64,000 nucleotides of DNA. It comes from an uncultured Candidatus Saccharibacteria bacterium (GTDB lineage: Bacteria; Patescibacteriota; Minisyncoccia; Phycocordibacterales; Phycocordibacteraceae). The position numbers and the translations under genes are program-made. Shown here piece after piece: positions 3,553 to 63,752 of this stretch (position 1 is its first letter; each line of letters begins with the position of its first letter). The DNA lies in assembly GCA_964546795.1 (NCBI GenBank), contig CAZJKG010000001.1:61690-125689 (forward strand), read 5' to 3'. The notes beneath the pieces were generated by a model. The model saw nothing but the letters and a program-made list of their open reading frames with translations, was not told where the DNA came from and ran no database searches.

Positions 3553-3579
3553 AGAAAAAACCAGCGGATAAGAAAAAGA

Positions 3580-3671
3580 GTGCGCACCACAAGAGTACTT
3601 CCATTTTCCTAAGCCCGAGTACGGGCAAGGAAAATTGGTCGCTCCGGGCCGCTAGGCCAAGTCCTACTACC
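3580..3671 (+). repeat. intergenic repeat family A, copy 1 (~90 nt, hairpin-containing); lies between convergent rpmA and rplI
   Basis: GTGCGCACCACAAGAGTACTTCCATTTTCCTAAGCCCGAGTACGGGCAAGGAAAATTGGTCGCTCCGGGCCGCTAGGCCAAGTCCTACTACC. A reverse-complement copy is at 37585-37674 and a core copy at 39595-39626. Confidence 0.7.
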
Positions 3672-3695
3672 TGTTTCTGGTTTTTTTGGCTCTCA

Positions 3696-6386: not shown

Positions 6387-7856
6387 ATGAAGTGGCTCAC
6401 CCGCATATTCAGGAAACGAAAGGATGCCGCCGCGCAGGACCGGCCTGCGCAAATATTCCTCACCAATACGCTCTCGGGCGCGAAAGAACTCTTCATATCG
6501 CAGAGACCGAGGATCGCATCGATGTATACGTGCGGGCCAACGGTCTACAGTCAGCAGCATATCGGCAATCTGCGGCCCGGAGTTTTCTCGGATACGCTCG
6601 CGCGAGCGCTCGCACATGCCGGCTATCGCGTGCGACGCGTCATCAACATCACGGACGTCGGCCATCTGGTCGGCGATGGGGACCTTGGCGAGGACAAGAT
6701 AGAGATGGGAGCAAAGCGCGAGGGCCTCTCCGCCTCCGCCATTGCCGAGCGATACACGACATTATTCCTTACCGACCTTGCGGAGCTCAATATTGATACA
6801 AAAGACATCTTCTTTCCCAAGGCAAGCGACTATATTAAAGAACAAATTTCGCTCGCGCGCACGCTTGAAGAAAAAGGGTTCGCCTATCGTATTGACGACG
6901 GTCTTTATTTCGACACAAGCCGTTTCCACGGCTACGGCAAGTTGGGCGGGCTCTCCGGTGCACAACTCAAAGCCGGAGCGCGCATTGAAACGAATCCCCA
7001 GAAACGCCATCAGGCCGACTTCGCACTGTGGAAAAAAACACCTCCTGATGTGAGTCGAATGCAGGAATGGGATTCGCCGTGGGGGCCCGGATTTCCCGGC
7101 TGGAATTTGGAGTGTTCTGCGATGGCGCGCGCATTGCTCGGCATTGAGATAGACATTCATACCGGAGGCGAGGATCTCGCGCAGATACACCATAACAACG
7201 AGATCGCTCAGTCGGAAGCTGCATCGGGTCGGCCGTTTTCCCGCTACTGGATGCACAATGCATTTCTTACTATGGAGGGTGAAAAAATATCGAAATCGAT
7301 AGGCAATGTCGTCTACCTCTCCACTATCATTGAGAAGGGATTCCATCCTCTTTCGCTCCGCTATTTTTTTCTCCAAGCGCACTATCGCACTCCCCTCTCC
7401 TTCTCGTGGAACGCCATTGCGGGCGCCGCAAGCGCGCTTGAACGGCTCTGGAAGCTCTCGCGCGAACTCGCGGAGGAATCCAAGCGAATGGAAGAATCTT
7501 CTGAAGCGCGCAGTCGCTTCCTTGCAGCGATGCGCGACGACCTCGCAACTCCGCAAGCACTCGGCATCCTCTGGGACTCCTTGAAGAGCGAGGATTACAC
7601 TCCCGAAGAAAAATGGTGTCTTCTTGAAGATGCTGAAGCGCATTTCGGTCTGTCGCTCCTGCATCCGCCCGCCGCAGGCGCCCTGGCAACATCGGACATT
7701 CCGGAAAAGATCCGCGAAATGCTTGCGCGGCGGGAAGCAGCGCGCGCGGCACTGGATTTTAAGGAGGCGGACCGCATCCGAACCGATATTGAGAACAGTG
7801 GATATCATGTGGATGACGGACCGGAAGGGCCGGTGTTGATTCGGACGACTCTTTGA
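6387..7856 (+). CDS. cysS: cysteinyl-tRNA synthetase
   Basis: MYTCGPTVYSQQHIGNLR (HIGH-like), KISKS (KMSKS), zinc-binding Cys, and a C-terminal anticodon-binding domain. The first ~25 aa are uncertain. Confidence 0.85.
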   Translation: MKWLTRIFRKRKDAAAQDRPAQIFLTNTLSGAKELFISQRPRIASMYTCGPTVYSQQHIGNLRPGVFSDTLARALAHAGYRVRRVINITDVGHLVGDGDLGEDKIEMGAKREGLSASAIAERYTTLFLTDLAELNIDTKDIFFPKASDYIKEQISLARTLEEKGFAYRIDDGLYFDTSRFHGYGKLGGLSGAQLKAGARIETNPQKRHQADFALWKKTPPDVSRMQEWDSPWGPGFPGWNLECSAMARALLGIEIDIHTGGEDLAQIHHNNEIAQSEAASGRPFSRYWMHNAFLTMEGEKISKSIGNVVYLSTIIEKGFHPLSLRYFFLQAHYRTPLSFSWNAIAGAASALERLWKLSRELAEESKRMEESSEARSRFLAAMRDDLATPQALGILWDSLKSEDYTPEEKWCLLEDAEAHFGLSLLHPPAAGALATSDIPEKIREMLARREAARAALDFKEADRIRTDIENSGYHVDDGPEGPVLIRTTL

Positions 7857-9376: not shown

Positions 9377-9524
9377 GCGAATACGCAATGTTGGAAACCC
9401 TCGGAGCCGACGCAGCATGGTAATTGCAGCGCCGAAGAGAGGTTGCGCTGCAATTTGCGTCGGAGAGAGTGAATGCGGCCTGTCGCAGGACAGGCCGACA
9501 TGTGTTCCAACATTGCGTATTCGC
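9377..9524. repeat. highly structured inverted-repeat element between dnaB and recR (20-bp perfect outer stem plus nested hairpins)
   Basis: GCGAATACGCAATGTTGGAA ... TTCCAACATTGCGTATTCGC enclose CCGACGCA/TGCGTCGG, ATTGCAGCGC/GCGCTGCAAT and CGGCCTG/CAGGCCG stems. Confidence 0.6.
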
Positions 9525-12088: not shown

Positions 12089-12126
12089 TGTATTTTTAAA
12101 TTAATGTATAGATCGAACGGAGCTTC

Positions 12127-12233
12127 GGAAAAAGCTAGAAGATGCGAGGCACGGGTAAGGCAATCTCTGCAGGCGTACAAAAGTACGACGGAAGAAATTA
12201 CCGGGACCCATAACGAAGCATCTTGAGCTTTTT
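12127..12233 (-). promoter_or_regulatory. long imperfect inverted repeat in the leader of the DEAD-box helicase / downstream of rplU
   Basis: GGAAAAAGCTAGAAGATGCG ... GCATCTTGAGCTTTTT (2 mismatches) separated by ~70 nt. Confidence 0.3.
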
Positions 12234-12238
12234 ACAAG

Positions 12239-12556
12239 CTACGAAATTGAGTCGATTTTGACTTTGAGAAGTGGTTGGCGATGCCCTTTGCGCTTGTAGT
12301 AGCGACTCTTCGGCTTGTACTTCACCACTTCCACTTTCTTTCCCAATCCGGCGAGAACGACAGTGCCCTTGACCTCCGCACCCTTGATAACGGGCGCGCC
12401 GATGGTCGTGTCCGAGCCGTTGTCGACGAGGAGCACCTCGCCAAATACAACCGTGTCACCTTTTTTCAAATCCCCTGGGAGCTTCTCTATAGCGATAGTG
12501 TCGCCCTTAGAGACGACGTACTGCTTCCCACCGGTCTTGATTACGGCCACTTCCAT
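12239..12556 (-). CDS. rplU: 50S ribosomal protein L21
   Basis: MEVAVIKTGGKQYVVSKGD...EKL...GD.V.F..VLLV......GAP resembles the E. coli L21 N-terminus. Start taken at the internal ATG (codon 67). Confidence 0.85.
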   Translation of the reverse strand: MEVAVIKTGGKQYVVSKGDTIAIEKLPGDLKKGDTVVFGEVLLVDNGSDTTIGAPVIKGAEVKGTVVLAGLGKKVEVVKYKPKSRYYKRKGHRQPLLKVKIDSIS

Positions 12557-20698: not shown

Positions 20699-20738
20699 CT
20701 ATCCAAACCACAATGCGACCGCATTGTGATTTGGATAG
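20699..20738. repeat. palindrome family B, copy 1 (19-bp arms, 1 mismatch)
   Basis: CTATCCAAACCACAATGCG-AC-CGCATTGTGATTTGGATAG. Related copy at 63709-63752. Confidence 0.6.
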
Positions 20739-20775
20739 TGCCCACAATTTGTACTCAAAATGAAATATGGAGCCG

Positions 20776-31927: not shown

Positions 31928-32041
31928 GCTCTGCAGTATACGCCCACCAAACCGGCTCGGCAAAACAAATTTCGCAGCCATCCACAATTTGTCGCTATAG
32001 CGACAAGTTGTGGATGGCTGCCCTTTTGAGTGGATACGCGC

Positions 32042-33175
32042 CTAGTGGACAATCTTGAAGATGTCGTGCGCCGTGACGACGACCATAAGAAGGACAAGAA
32101 AGACGAAGCTGATTGCATTAGCCGCGCGAGTGACGTTTACATCGATGGGGCGGCGGATGACGCTTTCAATGAGCACAAAGAGGAGCCGGCCGCCATCAAG
32201 CGCGGGAATGGGAATGAGATTGATGAGCGCAAGATTGATGGAAATAATCGCCATGATGGAGAGGAGATATTCAAATCCTTGTACCGATGCGGAACCGACG
32301 ACGCCCGCGATGCCGATGGGGCCTGCCACCTGCGAAAGGTCAGCTGAAAATGTGAAGACGCTGTAGAAAAAATGCCAGAGTCCGACTGCGGTGAGTTCGG
32401 TTGCGCTCCAAGTGAGCCGTGTGCCCTCTATAAGAGCCGCGCCGAAAGAGAGCGGTACAACGCCGATGGTAGCCACTTCAACTCCAAGCGCGTAGCGGCT
32501 TGGGTCGGCACTCGCAACGCCCGCTGCGGGCGTTGCGCTAATACTACGAACGTTCTCAGCATGCTTCACCATGAGAATGATTTCATTTCCGCCGCTTTGT
32601 GCAATAAATTCTGAAAAACTTTGAGGGTCCACAGCATGCCAGTCCCCCGCCGCATCATGCGCACTAAGTATTGAGTCGCCCGGTAGAAGTCCTGCAAGAG
32701 CCGCGGGCGAGCCGGGGAGCACGTTCGCGACCGCAAGTTCTGCACTACGAGCGTTTTGAATTTCATCCTGAGACAGCGCACGGGGCGTTCCGATGACGAG
32801 CGCGCCGGTGATAAGCACATAAGCAAAAAGGAGATTCATCGCGACACCGGCAATGAGCACAAACGCCTGAAGGATGCGCGGGCGAGCGGAAAACGAGCGT
32901 GGATCCACCCCTCCGCCTGCCTGCGCAGACAGACCATCCTCGCCGTATATCTTCACGAAACCGCCAAAAGGCAGCCAGTTGAGGGTGTACAGTGTCTCGC
33001 CCTTTTTTGCGATGACGGCCACGCGCGGCGGATAGCCGAGCCCGAATTCATCAACACGCATTCCCGAGAGTTTCGCTGCGACGAAATGTCCCAATTCATG
33101 TACTACGATAAGCGCAACGATAACGACGATAAAAATGAAAATAGTCACGAAGCGTATTATAGCAGAGCAATGAAT
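32042..33175 (-). CDS. rseP: RIP metalloprotease RseP (site-2 protease)
   Basis: HELGHF zinc motif, PDZ domain, LDG motif, multiple TM helices. The true start is unclear: the track ORF reaches 33256 but runs through an inverted-repeat element. Confidence 0.75.
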   Translation of the reverse strand: MHCSAIIRFVTIFIFIVVIVALIVVHELGHFVAAKLSGMRVDEFGLGYPPRVAVIAKKGETLYTLNWLPFGGFVKIYGEDGLSAQAGGGVDPRSFSARPRILQAFVLIAGVAMNLLFAYVLITGALVIGTPRALSQDEIQNARSAELAVANVLPGSPAALAGLLPGDSILSAHDAAGDWHAVDPQSFSEFIAQSGGNEIILMVKHAENVRSISATPAAGVASADPSRYALGVEVATIGVVPLSFGAALIEGTRLTWSATELTAVGLWHFFYSVFTFSADLSQVAGPIGIAGVVGSASVQGFEYLLSIMAIISINLALINLIPIPALDGGRLLFVLIESVIRRPIDVNVTRAANAISFVFLVLLMVVVTAHDIFKIVH

Positions 33176-33270
33176 CAGGGTATGCTGTTTTGGAACCGCA
33201 TAATTTCCTGCTGAAAATTTGCTCTGGCTCGCGCCGCCGCGCTCCGCACGTTCCAAAACAGCATACCCTG
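33176..33270. repeat. 21-bp perfect inverted repeat flanking a ~53-nt loop, between rseP and frr
   Basis: CAGGGTATGCTGTTTTGGAAC ... GTTCCAAAACAGCATACCCTG. Confidence 0.6.
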
Positions 33271-33285
33271 TATTCGTGCTCTATG

Positions 33286-37562: not shown

Positions 37563-37584
37563 GAGAATGGGCGAAGCAGAAAAA

Positions 37585-37674
37585 GATAGTTGGACTTGGC
37601 CTCTCGAACCGGAGCGACCAATTTTTCTTGCCTGTACTCAGGATTAGAAAAATGGAAGTGCTCTTGTGGTGCGC
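37585..37674 (-). repeat. intergenic repeat family A, copy 2 (reverse orientation)
   Basis: Its reverse complement aligns to 3580-3671 with about 80% identity, including a compensatory GCCCG/CGGGC -> CCTG/CAGG stem change. Confidence 0.7.
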
Positions 37675-37717
37675 TAGCTTTTTCTGCTTTGCTCGTGAAC
37701 GGCTATACTGTAAAGGT

Positions 37718-38171: not shown

Positions 38172-39578
38172 ATGAAAGAAATCGTGCAAGATGGCACGCC
38201 AGTGTTGCGCGATATCGCATTGCCCGTGCCCGAGGATCTCTTCGGCACCCCGGAGCTCGTGCATCTCATCAAGGACATGGAGGAGGCGCTCGACAAAGAG
38301 ACCGAGGGCGTCGCACTCGCCGCGCCGCAAATAGGAGTGTCGTACCGCGTCTTCATCGTAAGGAAAGACAGAACCCGTCCTTCGCCAAAGGCTACGGAGG
38401 GCACAGCACTTCCCCTACACGCGCCGCGAAGCGGCGCGTCGGGCAAACTTTTAGCGGAGTCGGAAGTTTTAGCCCCCGAAATAGAGGTCTTTATCAATCC
38501 CGAGATTGTAAAGACCTCCCGCAAGCGAGCAAAGACAGACGAAGGATGTCTCTCGGTTCGCGGCGTGTACGGCACGACCAACCGGCACGAACGCGTTACC
38601 ATCCGCGCCCGTCGTCCTGACGGCTCTAAACTAACGCGCGGCGCCGGCGGACTCTTGGCGCAAATATTCGAACATGAAATAGACCATTTGAACGGCATCC
38701 TCTTTATTGACCATGCCGAACATCTCATTCACATAAAGCGTCAATTGGAGCATCGCTTCGCCTATTTCGGTACGCCCCATGTCGCGAGCGATACGCTTGC
38801 CATTCTCATCGAACGCGGGTTTGTACCTTCCGTCGTTGTAACTTCTCCGGACGCGCCGAAAGGTCGGGGTCTTGCTCTTGCACCGTCCGAAACGAAAAAG
38901 CTCGCGCTTGTACACGGTATCCCCGTCATGACTCCGGAAAAATTAGACGCAAATGCAATCGCTGAGATAAATACATTCGCATGCGACTATGCCGTCGTCG
39001 TCGCCTACGGCAAGATATTTCCCGAAGAGCTTATAACCGCATTCCCCCGAGGCGTGGTAAATGTCCATTATTCACTTCTGCCGAAATATCGCGGAGCGAC
39101 ACCGCTTGAGACGGCTCTCCTTTCGGGCGACACGGAGACCGGCGTGACTATACAAGAAATGGTGCGTGAACTTGATGCGGGCGACATCATTGCGCAGAAG
39201 ACCACCGAAATTGCGCTGTTTGAGACCGCGCGCGAGCTGCGAGCGCGACTCATCGATATGGGAGCTTCCCTGCTTGCCGACACTCTCCCCGAATACGCAG
39301 CGGGGCGCATTGAGCCAGTTCCGCAAGACGCCTCCCGCGTCACGCGCACGAGGAAACTCAAAAAAGAAGACGGGCTTCTCTCACTTGATGCTCCTGCCGA
39401 AGTGAACTGGAACAAATACCGCGCATATGCCGACACTATCGGCACCTATTTCTTTGATCCGCCAATCGGCGGAGGTAAGCGAATTAAAATAACGGCGGCC
39501 TCATTTAAAAACGGGGTATTTGTCATCGAGCGCGTCATTCCCGAAGGTAAACGCGAGATGAACTACTCCGCGCGGTAA
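38172..39578 (+). CDS. bifunctional peptide deformylase / methionyl-tRNA formyltransferase fusion (Def-Fmt)
   Basis: The N-terminal half carries PDF motifs G.A.PQIG, EGCLSVRG and HEIDHLNG. The C-terminal half carries Fmt motifs (FGTP, HYSLLPKYRGATP, a C-terminal domain). It is a single uninterrupted 468-codon frame. Confidence 0.8.
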   Translation: MKEIVQDGTPVLRDIALPVPEDLFGTPELVHLIKDMEEALDKETEGVALAAPQIGVSYRVFIVRKDRTRPSPKATEGTALPLHAPRSGASGKLLAESEVLAPEIEVFINPEIVKTSRKRAKTDEGCLSVRGVYGTTNRHERVTIRARRPDGSKLTRGAGGLLAQIFEHEIDHLNGILFIDHAEHLIHIKRQLEHRFAYFGTPHVASDTLAILIERGFVPSVVVTSPDAPKGRGLALAPSETKKLALVHGIPVMTPEKLDANAIAEINTFACDYAVVVAYGKIFPEELITAFPRGVVNVHYSLLPKYRGATPLETALLSGDTETGVTIQEMVRELDAGDIIAQKTTEIALFETARELRARLIDMGASLLADTLPEYAAGRIEPVPQDASRVTRTRKLKKEDGLLSLDAPAEVNWNKYRAYADTIGTYFFDPPIGGGKRIKITAASFKNGVFVIERVIPEGKREMNYSAR

Positions 39579-39637
39579 ACCTTAAAAAAGGTAGCGCTCC
39601 GGGCCGCTAGGCCAAGTCCTACTACCTTTTTTAAGGT
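39579..39637 (+). terminator. 16-bp perfect-stem hairpin whose loop is the repeat-A core; bidirectional terminator between fmt and hpf
   Basis: ACCTTAAAAAAGGTAG-[CGCTCCGGGCCGCTAGGCCAAGTCCTA]-CTACCTTTTTTAAGGT, starting 1 nt after the fmt stop. Confidence 0.6.
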
Positions 39638-39655
39638 TTGCCGGCTCCGTAAAAT

Positions 39656-40360: not shown

Positions 40361-40440
40361 AAACATTCCGGGATAGCTCTCCGCCGGCTGGCGGAGGTAG
40401 AGCGGTTACAATCCGGGGTCGAGAGTTCGTTCGTAAACAT
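40361..40440 (+). other. tRNA-like fragment: duplicated 5' portion (acceptor + D-arm start) of the downstream tRNA
   Basis: AAACATTCCGGGATAGCTC recurs as AAACATATTCCGGGATAGCTC at 40435-40455. No matching 3' acceptor strand. Confidence 0.5.
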
Positions 40441-40442
40441 AT

Positions 40443-40735
40443 TCCGGGATAGCTCAATGGTAGAGCAGCGCCCTGTGGCTTACGCAGCTTTTCAGAGGAA
40501 TCTGGATCGAATAACGAGGTGAATTGCTGGAAACCCTTCGTGGGCAATCAGCAGCCAAGTCCCGCCGTCGGCTGGAAAGGTTCAGAGACTATCCCGAAAG
40601 GGAGTACTGTCCCGATGTAAAGTCGGAATGGGAAGCGCCTCGCACCGAGAAACGGTGATGATATAGTCCATCCCTTTTGGAAACTTAAGGAGCGATGTAA
40701 GGCGTTGGTTGCAGGTTCGAGTCCTGCTCCCGGAG
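40443..40735 (+). tRNA. tRNA (anticodon read as GTT, Asn) interrupted by a ~221-nt group I intron in the anticodon loop
   Basis: Exon 1 (40443-40476) and exon 2 (40698-40735) form a clean cloverleaf: acceptor TCCGGGA/TCCCGGA, D arm GCTC-AATGGTA-GAGC, anticodon stem GCGCC/GGCGT, loop CTGT^TAA, T arm GCAGG-TTCGAGT-CCTGC. Confidence 0.7.
40477..40697 (+). ncRNA. group I self-splicing intron
   Basis: 5' exon ends in U and the intron ends in G. Internal CAGCAGCCAAGTCC, GGTTCAGAGACTA and ATGTAAAGTCGGAATGGG resemble conserved P4/P7 core segments of Tetrahymena/cyanobacterial tRNA group I introns. Too short to encode a homing endonuclease. Confidence 0.65.
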
Positions 40736-40969
40736 CTAGAAAAAGTTAGGCCCTGATGCGGACAGCATTGGGGTCTTACTTTTTCTCTCCGCGGACAGGA
40801 CTCGAAAGCGAGCGCGGGTACCAGTCGAGCACGACTGGTCGCGCGAGGCGGCTCGCGAAATACTGGAGCGACGGCGACAGTATTTTGTGAGAGAGATGCG
40901 TACTCGCGATCCTGCTCCCGGAGCAAAATAACCGTAGGTCGGTTCAAGATGGCACTTTAGGGTGCTATT

Positions 40970-43762: not shown

Positions 43763-45019
43763 TTACGCTGCATATTGCGGACGTTGGCGTCCATATACGA
43801 AAAATAATAAAGCCAAGAGCGCCACGCATGATAAGGTGGCGCCAAACATGAATGGGGCCGCCGGACTCACTTTTTCCCATAATAAGCCGGCAATAATACT
43901 CGCGGGAAGTGCGATGACCCCGAGGGCAGCATTGTAGATGCCATACGCCCGCCCGCGATGATCCGCAGGCACCATGTCCGCCACAAACGCTTTTGCAACC
44001 CCTTCGGTAGTCGCATAATACAGACCGTAGAATGCAAAGAGGATCCATATCTGGTAGCTCGCGCTCGCGAACGCAAATCCTGCGTACGCGAGCGCGTAGG
44101 CGAGCCAGCCGAGCATGATGACTTTTTCTCTCCCGATCCGATCCGACAGAGTCCCGAGCGGCACGGATGCGACCGCATAGACGAAATTGAAAAGCGCGAA
44201 GACAAGCGGAATCGCAAGGAGTGTGACTCCAAGGTTCTGTGCTCTCAAAATAAGGAAAGCGTCAGAGGAATTTCCCAGGCCGAACAGCAACATAATGCCG
44301 AGGAATATATAGAAGGAACGTGGGAGAGCTACTTTCACTCCGGTCTCCATTGCTTTGTTCTGTACAGGACTCTCTTGCACTTTGAACTTCAATATCAGGA
44401 GCGTGATGACAAGAGGTATCGCTGTGATGAGAAGTATGATGTGGTATTTCGCCACACTGTCTTGCAGCAGATAGAGCAACCCGAAGAGTGCGAGCGGGCC
44501 GATGACCGAACCAAACGTATCGAGCATGCGCGCGATGCCGAATCCCCTACCGCGGTTATGTGCCTGCGTAGAATCCGCAATAAGGGCATCCTTGGGAGAA
44601 TCCTTCATTCCCTTTCCGATGCCGTCGAGGAAGCGGAGGCCGAGAATAAGGCCGCTTGATGCAGTAAGGGCAAGCATCGGCCGAGCGATGAGCGAAAAGA
44701 AATAGCCGAGGAATATGAATGGTTTTTTCTTTCCGAGACGATCGACAAAAAAGCCCGAAAGTATTTTAAACACACTCGCCCCGCTTGTGACCAAACCCTC
44801 GGAAATGCCGATGAACACTTTGTCGAAACCCAGTACGTTTGTAAGATAGAGTGGAAGGATAGGGATGAAGATATCTTGGCTGATACCGCCAAAGAAACTC
44901 AAGAGACCAATGTAGAATACGTTCCCCGCTTTTTTCTTTTCCGTAACGTCTTTAATCTCATGCATGCATAAAAGTATAGCTTTTAATATGTACGTATCCA
45001 AAATCCTGCTCCGCCCCAC
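43763..45019 (-). CDS. MFS transporter
   Basis: 12 predicted TM helices, and an MFS loop 2-3 motif (DRLGKKK). Confidence 0.75.
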   Translation of the reverse strand: MGRSRILDTYILKAILLCMHEIKDVTEKKKAGNVFYIGLLSFFGGISQDIFIPILPLYLTNVLGFDKVFIGISEGLVTSGASVFKILSGFFVDRLGKKKPFIFLGYFFSLIARPMLALTASSGLILGLRFLDGIGKGMKDSPKDALIADSTQAHNRGRGFGIARMLDTFGSVIGPLALFGLLYLLQDSVAKYHIILLITAIPLVITLLILKFKVQESPVQNKAMETGVKVALPRSFYIFLGIMLLFGLGNSSDAFLILRAQNLGVTLLAIPLVFALFNFVYAVASVPLGTLSDRIGREKVIMLGWLAYALAYAGFAFASASYQIWILFAFYGLYYATTEGVAKAFVADMVPADHRGRAYGIYNAALGVIALPASIIAGLLWEKVSPAAPFMFGATLSCVALLALLFFVYGRQRPQYAA

Positions 45020-45795
45020 ATCGGGATATATTTCCCCATTTTCGTCCGCTTGATGGAAAGTGCAAATGCTTTGCTGTGGAGTGATACACCGATACGGCCC
45101 GCAAGCGAGCGCATATAGGTTCCCGAGGCACAGGTTATCTTTAAGCGAAGTACGGCGAAACTCCTTGTATGCACGATTTTAAAAAGCGACTTCCAGTGCA
45201 CACGAACGGCATCTACGCGAAAATCTTCTCCAAGCCGCTTTGACGGCTCATCGGTGCGCGGAACGAGATCAAGAAATTTCGATACTCTTGCCTCAAGTTC
45301 TGTATCGGAAATTATATATGAGCCCTGATGCTGAATTCGATAGATACGCTCCACATGCTTAGGTATTTTTATGTGCGAAAGCGTTCCTTCAAGTGCATGG
45401 AGAAAGAGAGGTTTACCATTCACGGTCTTCGAAGAAAATGTGGGGTACGCACGCATATGCGCGCCACGTTCGCGATACAGTGCATCGGTAAGAATACCTG
45501 TATCTACGAGTGTTTCTTTATCAGCGTACTCTGGTATACCGAGCACATCACCCGTATCGCTCCCCATATCGAGTAAAACCTCGATCTCATATTCTTTATC
45601 CAGATCCATATACGCGCGCTGCTGTTTGCACTCATCTCCCAGAAGCACGAGTAGTTTACCGCATGCCATCGGGTCCAGACGGCCTGCATAACATACTGGT
45701 ACATCGGTATACTTTTGATTCCGTATCTTCCATGTCCGTATCGCCGCAAGCGGTGTCTCACCCACTTTTTTATCCAATACTACAAATCGTCTCAT
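44983..45795 (-). CDS. truB: tRNA pseudouridine(55) synthase TruB-like
   Basis: FVVLDKKVGETPLAAIRTWK and the catalytic AGRLDPMACGKLLVLLG. Start taken at the internal ATG; the track ORF begins at a GTG inside the inverted-repeat element. Confidence 0.7.
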   Translation of the reverse strand: MRRFVVLDKKVGETPLAAIRTWKIRNQKYTDVPVCYAGRLDPMACGKLLVLLGDECKQQRAYMDLDKEYEIEVLLDMGSDTGDVLGIPEYADKETLVDTGILTDALYRERGAHMRAYPTFSSKTVNGKPLFLHALEGTLSHIKIPKHVERIYRIQHQGSYIISDTELEARVSKFLDLVPRTDEPSKRLGEDFRVDAVRVHWKSLFKIVHTRSFAVLRLKITCASGTYMRSLAGRIGVSLHSKAFALSIKRTKMGKYIPMWGGAGFWIRTY

Positions 45796-45861
45796 TTTGT
45801 GCGCAGTATACCTTGTGAGATAAACTATATCGGGGTTCTTAATAAGCAGGAAATTCTTGTT

Positions 45862-46037
45862 CACAAACTTTGAATTACGAAACTCTCATGAGCGACCGTC
45901 CGCAGGCGCTGAGCTCTGGTGTTTTTTGGCTATACTGCGCGGAGCAAGCCAAAAAACTCAGCGCCGAGGACAGAGCGACGAGCCGCTGGAGCGAGCTCGC
46001 GTGTCGCACGGGAGAGTTTCGTAATTCAAAGTCACAA
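45862..46037. mobile_element. MITE-like element: 21-bp perfect terminal inverted repeats flanked by 5-bp direct repeat CACAA
   Basis: CACAA-ACTTTGAATTACGAAACTCTC ... GAGAGTTTCGTAATTCAAAGT-CACAA. The interior holds a further imperfect hairpin (GCGCTGAGCTCTGGTGTTTTTTGGC / GCCAAAAAACTCAGCGCC). Non-coding. Confidence 0.5.
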
Positions 46038-46094
46038 ATCAATCGTGAAGCGCGGGATTGATATAATGAATAGTTCGTGGTATTATGAGCGACA

Positions 46095-46322
46095 ATGAAG
46101 CGGCCCGATATAGACAAAGAAAGGAGTGAGAAATCACTTTCTCTTTCGAGCTTCCTAAAGTCCTATAATGAGGGTCTTCCGTTGGCATTTCCACGAGCTT
46201 CCCTGTCACTCCTGCGAGAGTTCAGGAAGGCACACAAAACAATCTTCAAGGGCACCGATTCGTGGTCGCTCGATCAGCACCGAAAGAAAGTGATGGATTG
46301 GCTTCCTTCTCTATCAACCTAA
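46095..46322 (+). CDS. hypothetical protein (75 aa)
   Basis: ORF only, in the gap before mltG. Confidence 0.15.
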   Translation: MKRPDIDKERSEKSLSLSSFLKSYNEGLPLAFPRASLSLLREFRKAHKTIFKGTDSWSLDQHRKKVMDWLPSLST

Positions 46323-46363: not shown

Positions 46364-47494
46364 TTGTTTCTTAATGGAGGATTTGCCGTTATACTAGTAG
46401 CGGTAGCAATTATTACATCTGTGGAACTTATACCTCCTTCGTATTCAAGGAATCGTCTCAAACACACAAAAAAAGGTGGGATGCACTACATTTTTACACT
46501 GCTCGGTCGCACGGTGCTGTTCGGAGTTATGTTGGGAGGCATTGTATTTTCGTTTCCCGTGCTGCTTGCTCTGAATATAGAGCGCGAACAGAATCAGAGT
46601 ATTTCTGCGGCACCCGAGCAGTTCCCTATCACGGTTGATCCTGGCAATAAAATCATTGTTGAAAACGCACAAGTGAATACTTTTTTTGAGAACACGTATT
46701 CTCCGCTTCAAGCGGCAGCCGGAAATGTCCAACATATACTGGGGAATGTATTTGAATGGATTGCTCTCTCTATCGCTGCGGCGCCGCAGTATCAAAGCAT
46801 TGCAGCGGTAGATGGTCGCTTTGTTGCTATTGAGCCAGGCATGAGAAAAGAACAAGTGACGAACATTTTTGCGAACACGCTTGCGTGGAATGCCAAGCAG
46901 AAAAAGGAATTTGTAACTGCGGAAACGGACTCGTCGCTTCCGCTTCCTGAAGGTTCATTCGCGCCAGGTGTCTATTCCGTTACAATGGGTGCAACGCCGG
47001 CCATAGTACAAAATCTTGTGAACGAACGCTTTTATAAGGATGTCATCTCCCATTACGGCCCAGAGACGGCTAGTATTGTGCCACTTGATCAAGCGCTCAC
47101 CATTGCTTCGCTTATTGAACGAGAGGCGGGAGGACCTGACGACATGCGCATCATATCTGGCATCATCTGGAATCGACTTTTTATTAGCATGAATCTTCAA
47201 ATAGATGCGACGCTCCAATACGCAAAAGCGAACAGTAGAGCAGGCGGGAGCTGGTGGCCGCGGATAGTGCCTGCGGATAGATTCCGTGCATCGCTCTATA
47301 ACACCTACTTACATCCGGGCCTGCCACCGACTCCCATATCAAATCCATCGGTGGCTTCCATACTAGCCGCCCTCAATCCAAGAAATACTTCATGTCTTTT
47401 CTATTTCCATGATGCGATGGGAGGATTCCATTGCACTCCCACATATGCCGAGCATGTCACACTTCTAAAGAAATATTATGGACGAGGAAAATAA
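46364..47494 (+). CDS. mltG: endolytic murein transglycosylase MltG (YceG family)
   Basis: N-terminal TM and a YceG core (ASLIEREAGGPDDMRIISGIIWNRL..M.LQIDATLQYA ... YNTY.HPGLPPTPISNPS ... FYFH). Confidence 0.8.
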   Translation: MFLNGGFAVILVAVAIITSVELIPPSYSRNRLKHTKKGGMHYIFTLLGRTVLFGVMLGGIVFSFPVLLALNIEREQNQSISAAPEQFPITVDPGNKIIVENAQVNTFFENTYSPLQAAAGNVQHILGNVFEWIALSIAAAPQYQSIAAVDGRFVAIEPGMRKEQVTNIFANTLAWNAKQKKEFVTAETDSSLPLPEGSFAPGVYSVTMGATPAIVQNLVNERFYKDVISHYGPETASIVPLDQALTIASLIEREAGGPDDMRIISGIIWNRLFISMNLQIDATLQYAKANSRAGGSWWPRIVPADRFRASLYNTYLHPGLPPTPISNPSVASILAALNPRNTSCLFYFHDAMGGFHCTPTYAEHVTLLKKYYGRGK

Positions 47495-63708: not shown

Positions 63709-63752
63709 CACTATCCACAATACAATGCGGTCGCATTGTATTGTGGATAGTG
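63709..63752. repeat. palindrome family B, copy 2 (21-bp perfect arms)
   Basis: CACTATCCACAATACAATGCG-GT-CGCATTGTATTGTGGATAGTG. Confidence 0.6.

Follow-up and report, generated by a model that had tools for sequence, protein, structure and literature searches.

An inverted-repeat element in the spacer between truB and a divergent open reading frame

We analysed a 64-kb stretch of DNA from an uncultured Candidatus Saccharibacteria bacterium, referred to here as the window, which carries a 166-bp element with perfect terminal inverted repeats upstream of truB (44983-45795, minus strand; Pfam TruB_N match, ATG at 45795). The element sits 71 nt upstream of the truB ATG, in the spacer between truB and a divergent neighbour, an open reading frame (ORF) of 75 amino acids (aa) on the plus strand at 46095-46322 that the gene caller did not call. 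This ORF is followed by mltG/YceG (46364-47494, plus strand, Pfam YceG). An earlier note on this DNA, made from the sequence alone, had described the locus as a MITE-like insertion, i.e. as a MITE (miniature inverted-repeat transposable element), and this reading is now supported by an empty site in a related genome, by further copies of the ends and by full-length elements that bear a transposase.

Direct reading of the sequence and a repeat finder both place the left terminal inverted repeat ACTTTGAATTACGAAACTCTC, presumably a transposase-binding end, at 45867-45887 (plus strand) and the right one, its exact reverse complement, at 46012-46032 (minus strand). The two copies of the target-site duplication CACAA occupy 45862-45866 and 46033-46037. 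With junctions that read ...TTGTT CACAA / ACTTTGAATTACGAAACTCTC ... GAGAGTTTCGTAATTCAAAGT / CACAA ATC..., the claim of perfect 21-bp repeats (21/21) directly abutted by CACAA on both sides is confirmed. The repeat finder extends the arms to 30 nt (45867-45896 and 46003-46032) at 90% complementarity (27/30), the outer 21 nt being perfect. Allowing up to three mismatches, the 21-mer matches only the two end sites in the window, while 100 shuffled versions of the window averaged 0.01 matches and never reached two. If the terminal A and T of the element are counted as flank, a 7-nt TCACAAA is repeated; the boundary is ambiguous in this respect, and the duplication can be read as 5 bp within a T...A target context.

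The 124-nt interior (45888-46011) is non-coding and highly structured as judged from the repeat finder and from folding, in agreement with the further hairpin reported before. The main interior hairpin is formed by pairing of 45905-45913 with 45957-45965 and of 45921-45931 with 45947-45957; a second, shorter hairpin lies at about 45973-46004. The whole element folds to -92 to -93 kcal/mol on either strand compared to about -57 kcal/mol for shuffled sequence, giving z = -7.4 and -8.3 for the two strands. Rfam 15 yielded no match to the element at the gathering score (best relaxed matches 15-16 bits, E > 1), and neither a consensus promoter scan nor a search for terminator-like sites found anything inside it.

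A related genome lacks the element

The empty site that had been predicted for a related genome was found in L003 (ENA ERZ1292623), which encodes a TruB 83% identical to that of the window and keeps the gene order yceG, 75-aa ORF, truB. The orthologous site in L003 contains one TTCACAAA and a single TTGTG (CACAA on the other strand), the element is absent, and the flanks are conserved and alignable on both sides. The empty site reads ...TTCACAAACC... as compared to the predicted ...TTCACAAATC..., and the reconstructed empty-site sequence for the window locus is TTGTTCACAAATCAATCG. Set against the reverse strand of the window, ...CGATTGGTTTGTGAACAAGAAC... in L003 corresponds to ...CGATTGATTTGTG(166 bp)TTGTGAACAAGAAT..., and in truB orientation ...TCATTATATCAATCCGTCCAGCGATTTTCGATTGGTTTGTGAACAAGAACACTGG... 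in L003 corresponds to ...TCATTATATCAATCCCGCGCTTCACGATTGATTTGTG(ACTTTG...166 bp...CAAAGT)TTGTGAACAAGAATTTCC... in the window. A transposon insertion, rather than a regulatory RNA, accounts for the 171 extra bp that separate truB from its divergent neighbour. In another relative, L002 (TruB 84% identical), the gap between yceG and truB measures 54 nt and is not alignable base for base.

The same ends recur across many lineages with unrelated interiors

The search for the terminal repeat elsewhere that the earlier note had proposed returned many copies. The 21-mer is present without mismatch in 16 stretches of 13 species-representative genomes, 11 of which carry names of lineages of the candidate phyla radiation (CPR); the labels include Saccharibacteria, Parcubacteria group, Doudnabacteria, Staskawiczbacteria, Moranbacteria, Yonathbacteria, Nomurabacteria and Patescibacteria group. 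The other two genomes are labelled only 'bacterium' and, as given, 'Gammaproteobacteria'. An arithmetic estimate of the chance expectation for such a 21-mer is about 0.3 matches in the 596 Gb of genomes. It was further found in 63 metagenome stretches, many from groundwater and including Hainich assemblies, and was not found in viral contigs. This wide spread in CPR assemblies contradicts the expectation that CPR genomes would not tolerate such insertions.

Ends were paired by their first 17 nt in inverted orientation with at most three mismatches, which yielded 53 short pairs (68-356 bp) and 10 long ones (972-1108 bp). Positions 1-17 show 87-100% conservation over 127 non-identical ends, and beyond position 21 the conservation falls off; part of it reflects the way in which the sequences were collected. 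The ends occur in dozens of unrelated genomic contexts, and other genomes hold two to three copies within 8-13 kb (e.g. L004, L039, L049, L051 and L058).

Target-site duplications are common among the short elements. Perfect direct repeats of 4-6 bp abut 22 of the 42 non-redundant short pairs with enough flank, 9 of them being 4 bp, 12 being 5 bp and one being 6 bp long; examples are TTTTT, CTTTT, ACTAA, ACGAA, ACTTC and CCGTG. When the right flank was displaced by 30 nt as a control, a direct repeat of 3 bp or more was seen in 0 of 50 cases. Most of the 5-bp duplications have a T before the left copy and an A after the right copy, as in T CACAA A at the truB locus, which is either a target preference or the boundary ambiguity described above.

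In contrast to the ends, the interiors vary. Trimmed of 24 terminal nucleotides, 38 short elements give interiors that group into 17 unrelated clusters, and BLAST of these 38 interiors against 10 full-length insertion sequences (IS) produced no matches; only the ends are shared across the superfamily. For the interior type of the window element we found one other copy, L013 3206-3372, which is 94% identical over the whole unit. It is found in a genome labelled Saccharibacteria, on a contig of 4.5 kb, between ATPase and Fic-like genes and with flanks unrelated to those in the window. Overlapping ORFs of 55-80 aa in the window element are broken by two indels in this copy, which excludes a conserved ORF in the interior. 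As for base pairing, the substitutions between the two copies comprise one compensatory pair in the inner hairpin (T-A to C-G) and three that leave a G-U pair on the plus strand; none breaks a predicted pair.

The commonest interior type, present in 13 short elements including L009, L010, L012, L015 and L016, contains GTCATTCCCGCGAAGGCGGGAATCCAG-like sub-hairpins. These presumably resemble the ATTCCC-N8-GGGAAT repeats of Neisseria.

Full-length elements that share these ends encode a DDE transposase

A cognate transposase, the second search that had been proposed, was found as well: full-length elements bounded by the same ends encode a DDE transposase. Nine of the ten long pairs (972-1108 bp) enclose a single intact ORF of 266-304 aa; the tenth, L026, yields 188 aa from the first ATG and 279 aa from a GTG start. 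These autonomous copies emerged by pairing of metagenome ends, no transposase being found beside the single-arm matches in L004, L007 and L011. Profile scans covered three of the ORFs (266-279 aa). All three pass Pfam PF13612 DDE_Tnp_1_3 with 87-105 bits (cut-off 27), and their best NCBIfam match is NF033520 transpos_IS982 (E 1.5e-32 to 2e-36), aligned over 225-229 residues and profile positions 3-241 of 243. The NCBIfam families that come next, IS4 and IS5, reach at most 43 bits. When plasmids were searched with tblastn, 14 of the 15 matches listed fall under genes annotated as 'IS982 family transposase' and the remaining one has no annotated feature; the IS982 matches, from Legionella, Acinetobacter, Piscirickettsia and Leptolyngbya, show 27-32% identity at 85-96% coverage.

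In an alignment of the ten CPR proteins with three annotated IS982 proteins, two aspartates and one glutamate are invariant. A lysine is found seven residues after the aligned glutamate in all 13 proteins; as the family review calls the triad 'atypical' for having no K/R 6-7 residues after the E (PMC7335449), either the assignment of the glutamate may differ or the criterion does not discriminate. The inverted repeats of the three annotated elements, ACGCGAGTTCGA, ACGTGAGTTCGA and ACCTGAGTTCGA, resemble ACTTTGAATTACGA, the pattern of the annotated members being AC(G/C)(T/C)GAGTTCGA. The first 17 nt of the CPR ends, ACTTTGAATTACGAAAC, agree with the IS982 consensus in the AC start and in T9, while positions 15-16 are AA where the consensus has TT. 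On this sequence evidence the parent family is IS982-like, and the CPR parent elements probably represent a divergent IS982-like subgroup.

The parents that had been suggested earlier, IS630/Tc1, IS5 and IS200/605, do not agree with these data. Members of IS630 duplicate TA, and those of IS200/605 have neither inverted repeats nor a duplication. IS630 was rejected on the 5-bp duplication CACAA, IS200/605 on the presence of inverted repeats, and IS5 on profile scores of 17-43 bits as compared to 113-126 bits for NF033520.

The transposase is abundant. At E <= 1e-10 we obtained 2,814 protein clusters, of which the best 120 are 72-98% identical to the query; most of these 120 sit on contigs of about 1 kb, as expected since the repeat breaks assemblies. 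With regard to the host itself, the sequence examined was the window plus about 14 kb more of the same contig, 78 kb in all, and tblastn of 13 transposases against it found none.

Both putative promoters of the spacer lie outside the element

A probable -10 element of truB, TATACT, is located at 45806-45811, between the insertion and the gene and 10 nt before the ATG, and is kept in L003 within a conserved TATACTGCGCACAAAATG. On the other side, a promoter-like site for the 75-aa ORF and mltG (TTGATA-17-TATTAT with TG, plus strand) spans 46058-46086, about 26 nt beyond the right end of the element; TTGATATAATGAATAG at this site is conserved in L003, as is the TTGATATAAT motif. Since both conserved motifs fall outside the element, the insertion appears to leave both putative promoters intact. 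Its position upstream of both of them, together with the absence of a promoter-like site inside it in the consensus scan, suggests that the insertion is neutral. We also looked for a hybrid promoter at the right end of the element; inspection by eye found no convincing -35 at the right spacing, and the scan found none.

The 75-aa ORF has a homologue of 75 aa in L003 with roughly 85% amino-acid identity (hand translation) and is absent from L002. The window belongs to a metagenome contig of 173 kb (ENA ERZ27284378, k139_648605), and the nearest homologues of TruB and DnaB carry the labels Kaiserbacteria, Paceibacterota or Patescibacteria.

Origin of the 166-bp element

Taken together, we put at roughly 90% the probability that the 166-bp element is a non-autonomous transposon, a MITE, with the ends of an IS982-like IS of about 1 kb that is widespread in CPR/Patescibacteria. 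It is shorter than about 500 bp, has terminal inverted repeats, lacks a transposase, is flanked by a duplication that is matched by an empty site, and has its ends in common with an autonomous element. According to the proposed mechanism, a DDE transposase from a full-length copy, perhaps one no longer in the host genome, would act in trans and bind the two ends of the element, which would thereby have moved into the spacer between the divergent promoters of truB and of the 75-aa ORF and mltG. Staggered cuts 5 bp apart at ...T/CACAA/A... followed by repair would duplicate CACAA. We infer trans-mobilisation and this cut geometry as the route to what is observed, namely an insertion with its duplication, ends in common with full-length copies and their transposase family. 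Whether IS982-type transposition proceeds by cut-and-paste or copy-paste is unsettled even for the type elements (PMC7335449). The repeats and the duplication are perfect, suggesting that little time may have passed since the insertion.

Several observations weigh against this interpretation. The 78 kb of host contig contain one copy of the element and no autonomous IS, and thus give no evidence of current mobility in the host genome. L003 provides the sole clean orthologous empty site, and more distant relatives (TruB 75-76% identical) have a different gene upstream, synteny being lost. The NF033520 scores of 113-126 bits are just under the curated (equivalog) cut-off of 130. A duplication is present in only one of eight full-length copies; as many of these copies are on very short contigs, chimeric assembly of a multi-copy repeat may be the cause. 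L013, the only other copy of the interior type of the window element, has no target-site duplication. Finally, the pairing-preserving substitutions between these two sequences hint that the interior may not be mere filler.

This last point bears on the possibility that the locus is a stand-alone gene for a structured non-coding RNA, with the closing stem as a processing or stability helix and a coincidental likeness to a transposon. The very stable fold on both strands would suit such a gene, as would the compensatory pair and the three G-U-keeping changes with no broken pair between the two copies. However, what would be the closing stem is precisely the repeat at the ends of transposase-bearing elements, and conserved ends enclosing 17 unrelated clusters of interiors are the reverse of what an RNA gene would show. 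Moreover, the element is missing from the orthologous site in L003 and is flanked by a duplication, has no Rfam match and no promoter-like or terminator-like site within it, and the covariation comes from two sequences only. We therefore regard an RNA gene as very unlikely. A related but distinct proposal is that the interiors are selected structured modules, RNA or DNA hairpins, which transposon ends spread between CPR lineages. It is prompted by the substitutions that keep pairing and by at least two further lineage-specific hairpin families in the genome (see below), and we consider it rather unlikely. If true, this could mean that CPR bacteria habitually pick up structured mobile cassettes between their genes, such as terminator or insulator modules.

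The short form could also be what is left in place of a full-length IS982-like element after an internal deletion removed its transposase gene, and would then never have transposed as such. The ends are indeed identical to those of full-length copies, and deletion derivatives are the usual origin of MITEs, as in the case of MITECca01 from ISCca4 (PMC9769881). Outside the ends, however, the interior resembles none of the 10 full-length elements, and an origin of the interior by deletion within an IS was rejected because the BLAST comparison of the 38 interiors came back empty. In addition, a 94%-identical 166-bp unit is present at an unrelated locus of another genome; therefore the short form itself has spread, and a remnant in place is highly improbable. 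Least credible of all is a regulatory palindrome of the host, i.e. an operator, insulator or cruciform of the divergent promoter region. The position between two divergent putative promoters, with the right end 26-29 nt upstream of one of them, would fit such a role, but L003 has both genes and the conserved promoter motifs without the element, and the same ends are found in dozens of unrelated contexts.

Other hairpin elements and further features of the window

The MITE had been grouped with elements at 9377-9524, 33176-33270 and 12127-12233 into one population of inverted-repeat elements. Part of this holds, in that 9377-9524 is lineage-specific and 33176-33270 is repeated; what does not hold is the relationship with the MITE, as comparison of the other hairpin elements with it revealed no common ends or interior. 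The genome carries a set of lineage-specific intergenic inverted-repeat elements.

One repeat family, which the earlier note had not listed, is defined by 37571-37692 (plus strand) and 3571-3679 (minus strand), which are 85% identical over 109 nt. It includes a copy in L002 at 7309-7432 (90%), a truncated form at 39573-39643 and, outside the window, a partial copy at L090 1580-1630. A core of about 90 nt is 85-90% identical among the copies, while the outer stems of about 20 bp vary and yet stay complementary, and compensatory changes affect five predicted pairs in the inner hairpins. The 37571-37692 copy is absent from the junction of the EPSP-synthase and 97-aa genes in L002, which reads TAAGAG/TATG. 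The 3571-3679 copy is absent from the L27/L9 gap of L085, where a plain terminator hairpin is found instead. The second family, 33164-33282, has another copy at L091 19716-19786, on the same contig outside the window and in the ftsW-murG gap. Its core of about 70 nt is 90% identical, the outer stems are unrelated but each is self-complementary, and both partners are changed in 11 of 37 predicted pairs. The core may have landed in the middle of palindromes that were already there; alternatively, the family may be a structured RNA whose closing helix is free. A conserved core with variable but complementary stems is the reverse of the MITE pattern and calls for a separate explanation.

The element at 9377-9524 (148 nt, with a perfect 20-bp stem) lies between dnaB and recR. 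It is missing from four relatives (DnaB identity 92-93%), in which 5-26 nt separate dnaB from recR; in one of the four, a CYTH gene stands in between. The gap between rplU and a DEAD-helicase gene (12120-12240) measures 150 nt in the window as compared to 73-80 nt in relatives. Neither 9377-9524 nor 12127-12233 has a target duplication or a second copy in the 78 kb. None of these other hairpin elements has an Rfam match, and their cores are also absent from viral contigs.

Two genomes with identical DnaB, L083 and L084, differ in the gap between recR and a DEAD-box helicase gene. About 114 extra nt in L083 (7988-8154, as compared to 7988-8040 in L084) split a hairpin that is intact in L084 (GCACCTCTGC...). 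This difference is another small intergenic insertion polymorphism in the clade.

Near-perfect palindromes of 40-48 bp are located at gene ends (31974-32021, 63709-63752, 20699-20740 and L090 7656-7695) and contain ATCCACAA / TTGTGGAT, which are DnaA-box-like. They are mutually related, 63709-63750 and 20699-20740 being 86% identical. At about 40443-40736 (plus strand) a group I intron at 40480-40690 (Rfam RF00028, 81.6 bits) apparently interrupts the anticodon loop of a tRNA gene, the 5' half being TCCGGGATAGCTCAATGGTAGAGCAGCGCC... and the 3' half ...GGCGTTGGTTGCAGGTTCGAGTCCTGCTCCCGGA. This split tRNA is absent from the ARAGORN calls; tRNA-like fragments lie nearby at about 40369-40430 and 40905-40925.

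Relation to known elements and significance

The closest described counterpart is MITECca01, an element of about 240 bp from the Cardinium endosymbiont of Oedothorax gibbosus, which has no transposase and has ends very similar to those of ISCca4, a member of the IS982 family; the authors propose that intact parental copies mobilise it (PMC9769881). The relationship between short element and parent is the same as that of the window element to the CPR elements of about 1 kb. The two cases differ in that MITECca01 keeps short parental sequence inside its repeats, whereas the interior of the window element is unrelated to the parent, and in that MITECca01 is abundant in one genome beside its parent, while the window element is present in one copy with no parent in 78 kb. 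Furthermore, unlike in MITECca01, the ends of the window element enclose at least 17 unrelated interiors in numerous CPR lineages.

IS982-family elements are 845-1282 bp long and encode transposases of 208-326 aa with 25-98% mutual identity; their repeats have 11-32 identical bp starting 5'-AC(N)6T(N)5TT and their direct repeats measure 2-10 bp (Fayad et al. 2020, PMC7335449). The CPR elements share these features with respect to length (972-1108 bp), coding capacity (an ORF of 266-304 aa in nine of ten), AC start and T9, direct repeats of 4-6 bp and 27-32% identity to annotated members. They depart from the consensus with AA instead of TT at positions 15-16 and in the NCBIfam score just under the cut-off. 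None of the 70 registered IS982 members is from CPR, and MITEs are unmentioned in the review (PMC7335449). Our full-text literature searches found no paper on MITEs in Patescibacteria and, for the repeat sequence, no relevant paper but only an unrelated one on cacao.

Small mobile elements of this build are known from other bacteria. The Correia elements (CREE) of Neisseria are intergenic, 100-160 bp long and often beside promoters, with terminal inverted repeats of about 26 bp, a target duplication and long hairpins; RUP, BOX and ERIC are similar bacterial MITEs. Correia elements duplicate TA, number in the hundreds per genome and are not known to have a parent IS. By comparison, the window element has a 5-bp duplication, an identified parent family and a low copy number in the examined sequence. 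It is an ordinary, previously undescribed bacterial MITE. While IS982-derived MITEs have precedent, the novelty lies in the host group, in the range of lineages with near-identical ends and in the many unrelated interiors.

These findings document an abundant IS982-like IS/MITE superfamily in CPR/Patescibacteria, whose ends of 17-21 bp hardly vary between Parcubacteria-type, Saccharibacteria-labelled and other lineages. The 17-mer ACTTTGAATTACGAAAC provides a handy marker for the annotation of such repeats. With many transposase copies on contigs of about 1 kb, it can help to explain breaks in CPR contigs, and it is usable for the detection of insertion polymorphisms and of horizontal transfer among CPR bacteria.

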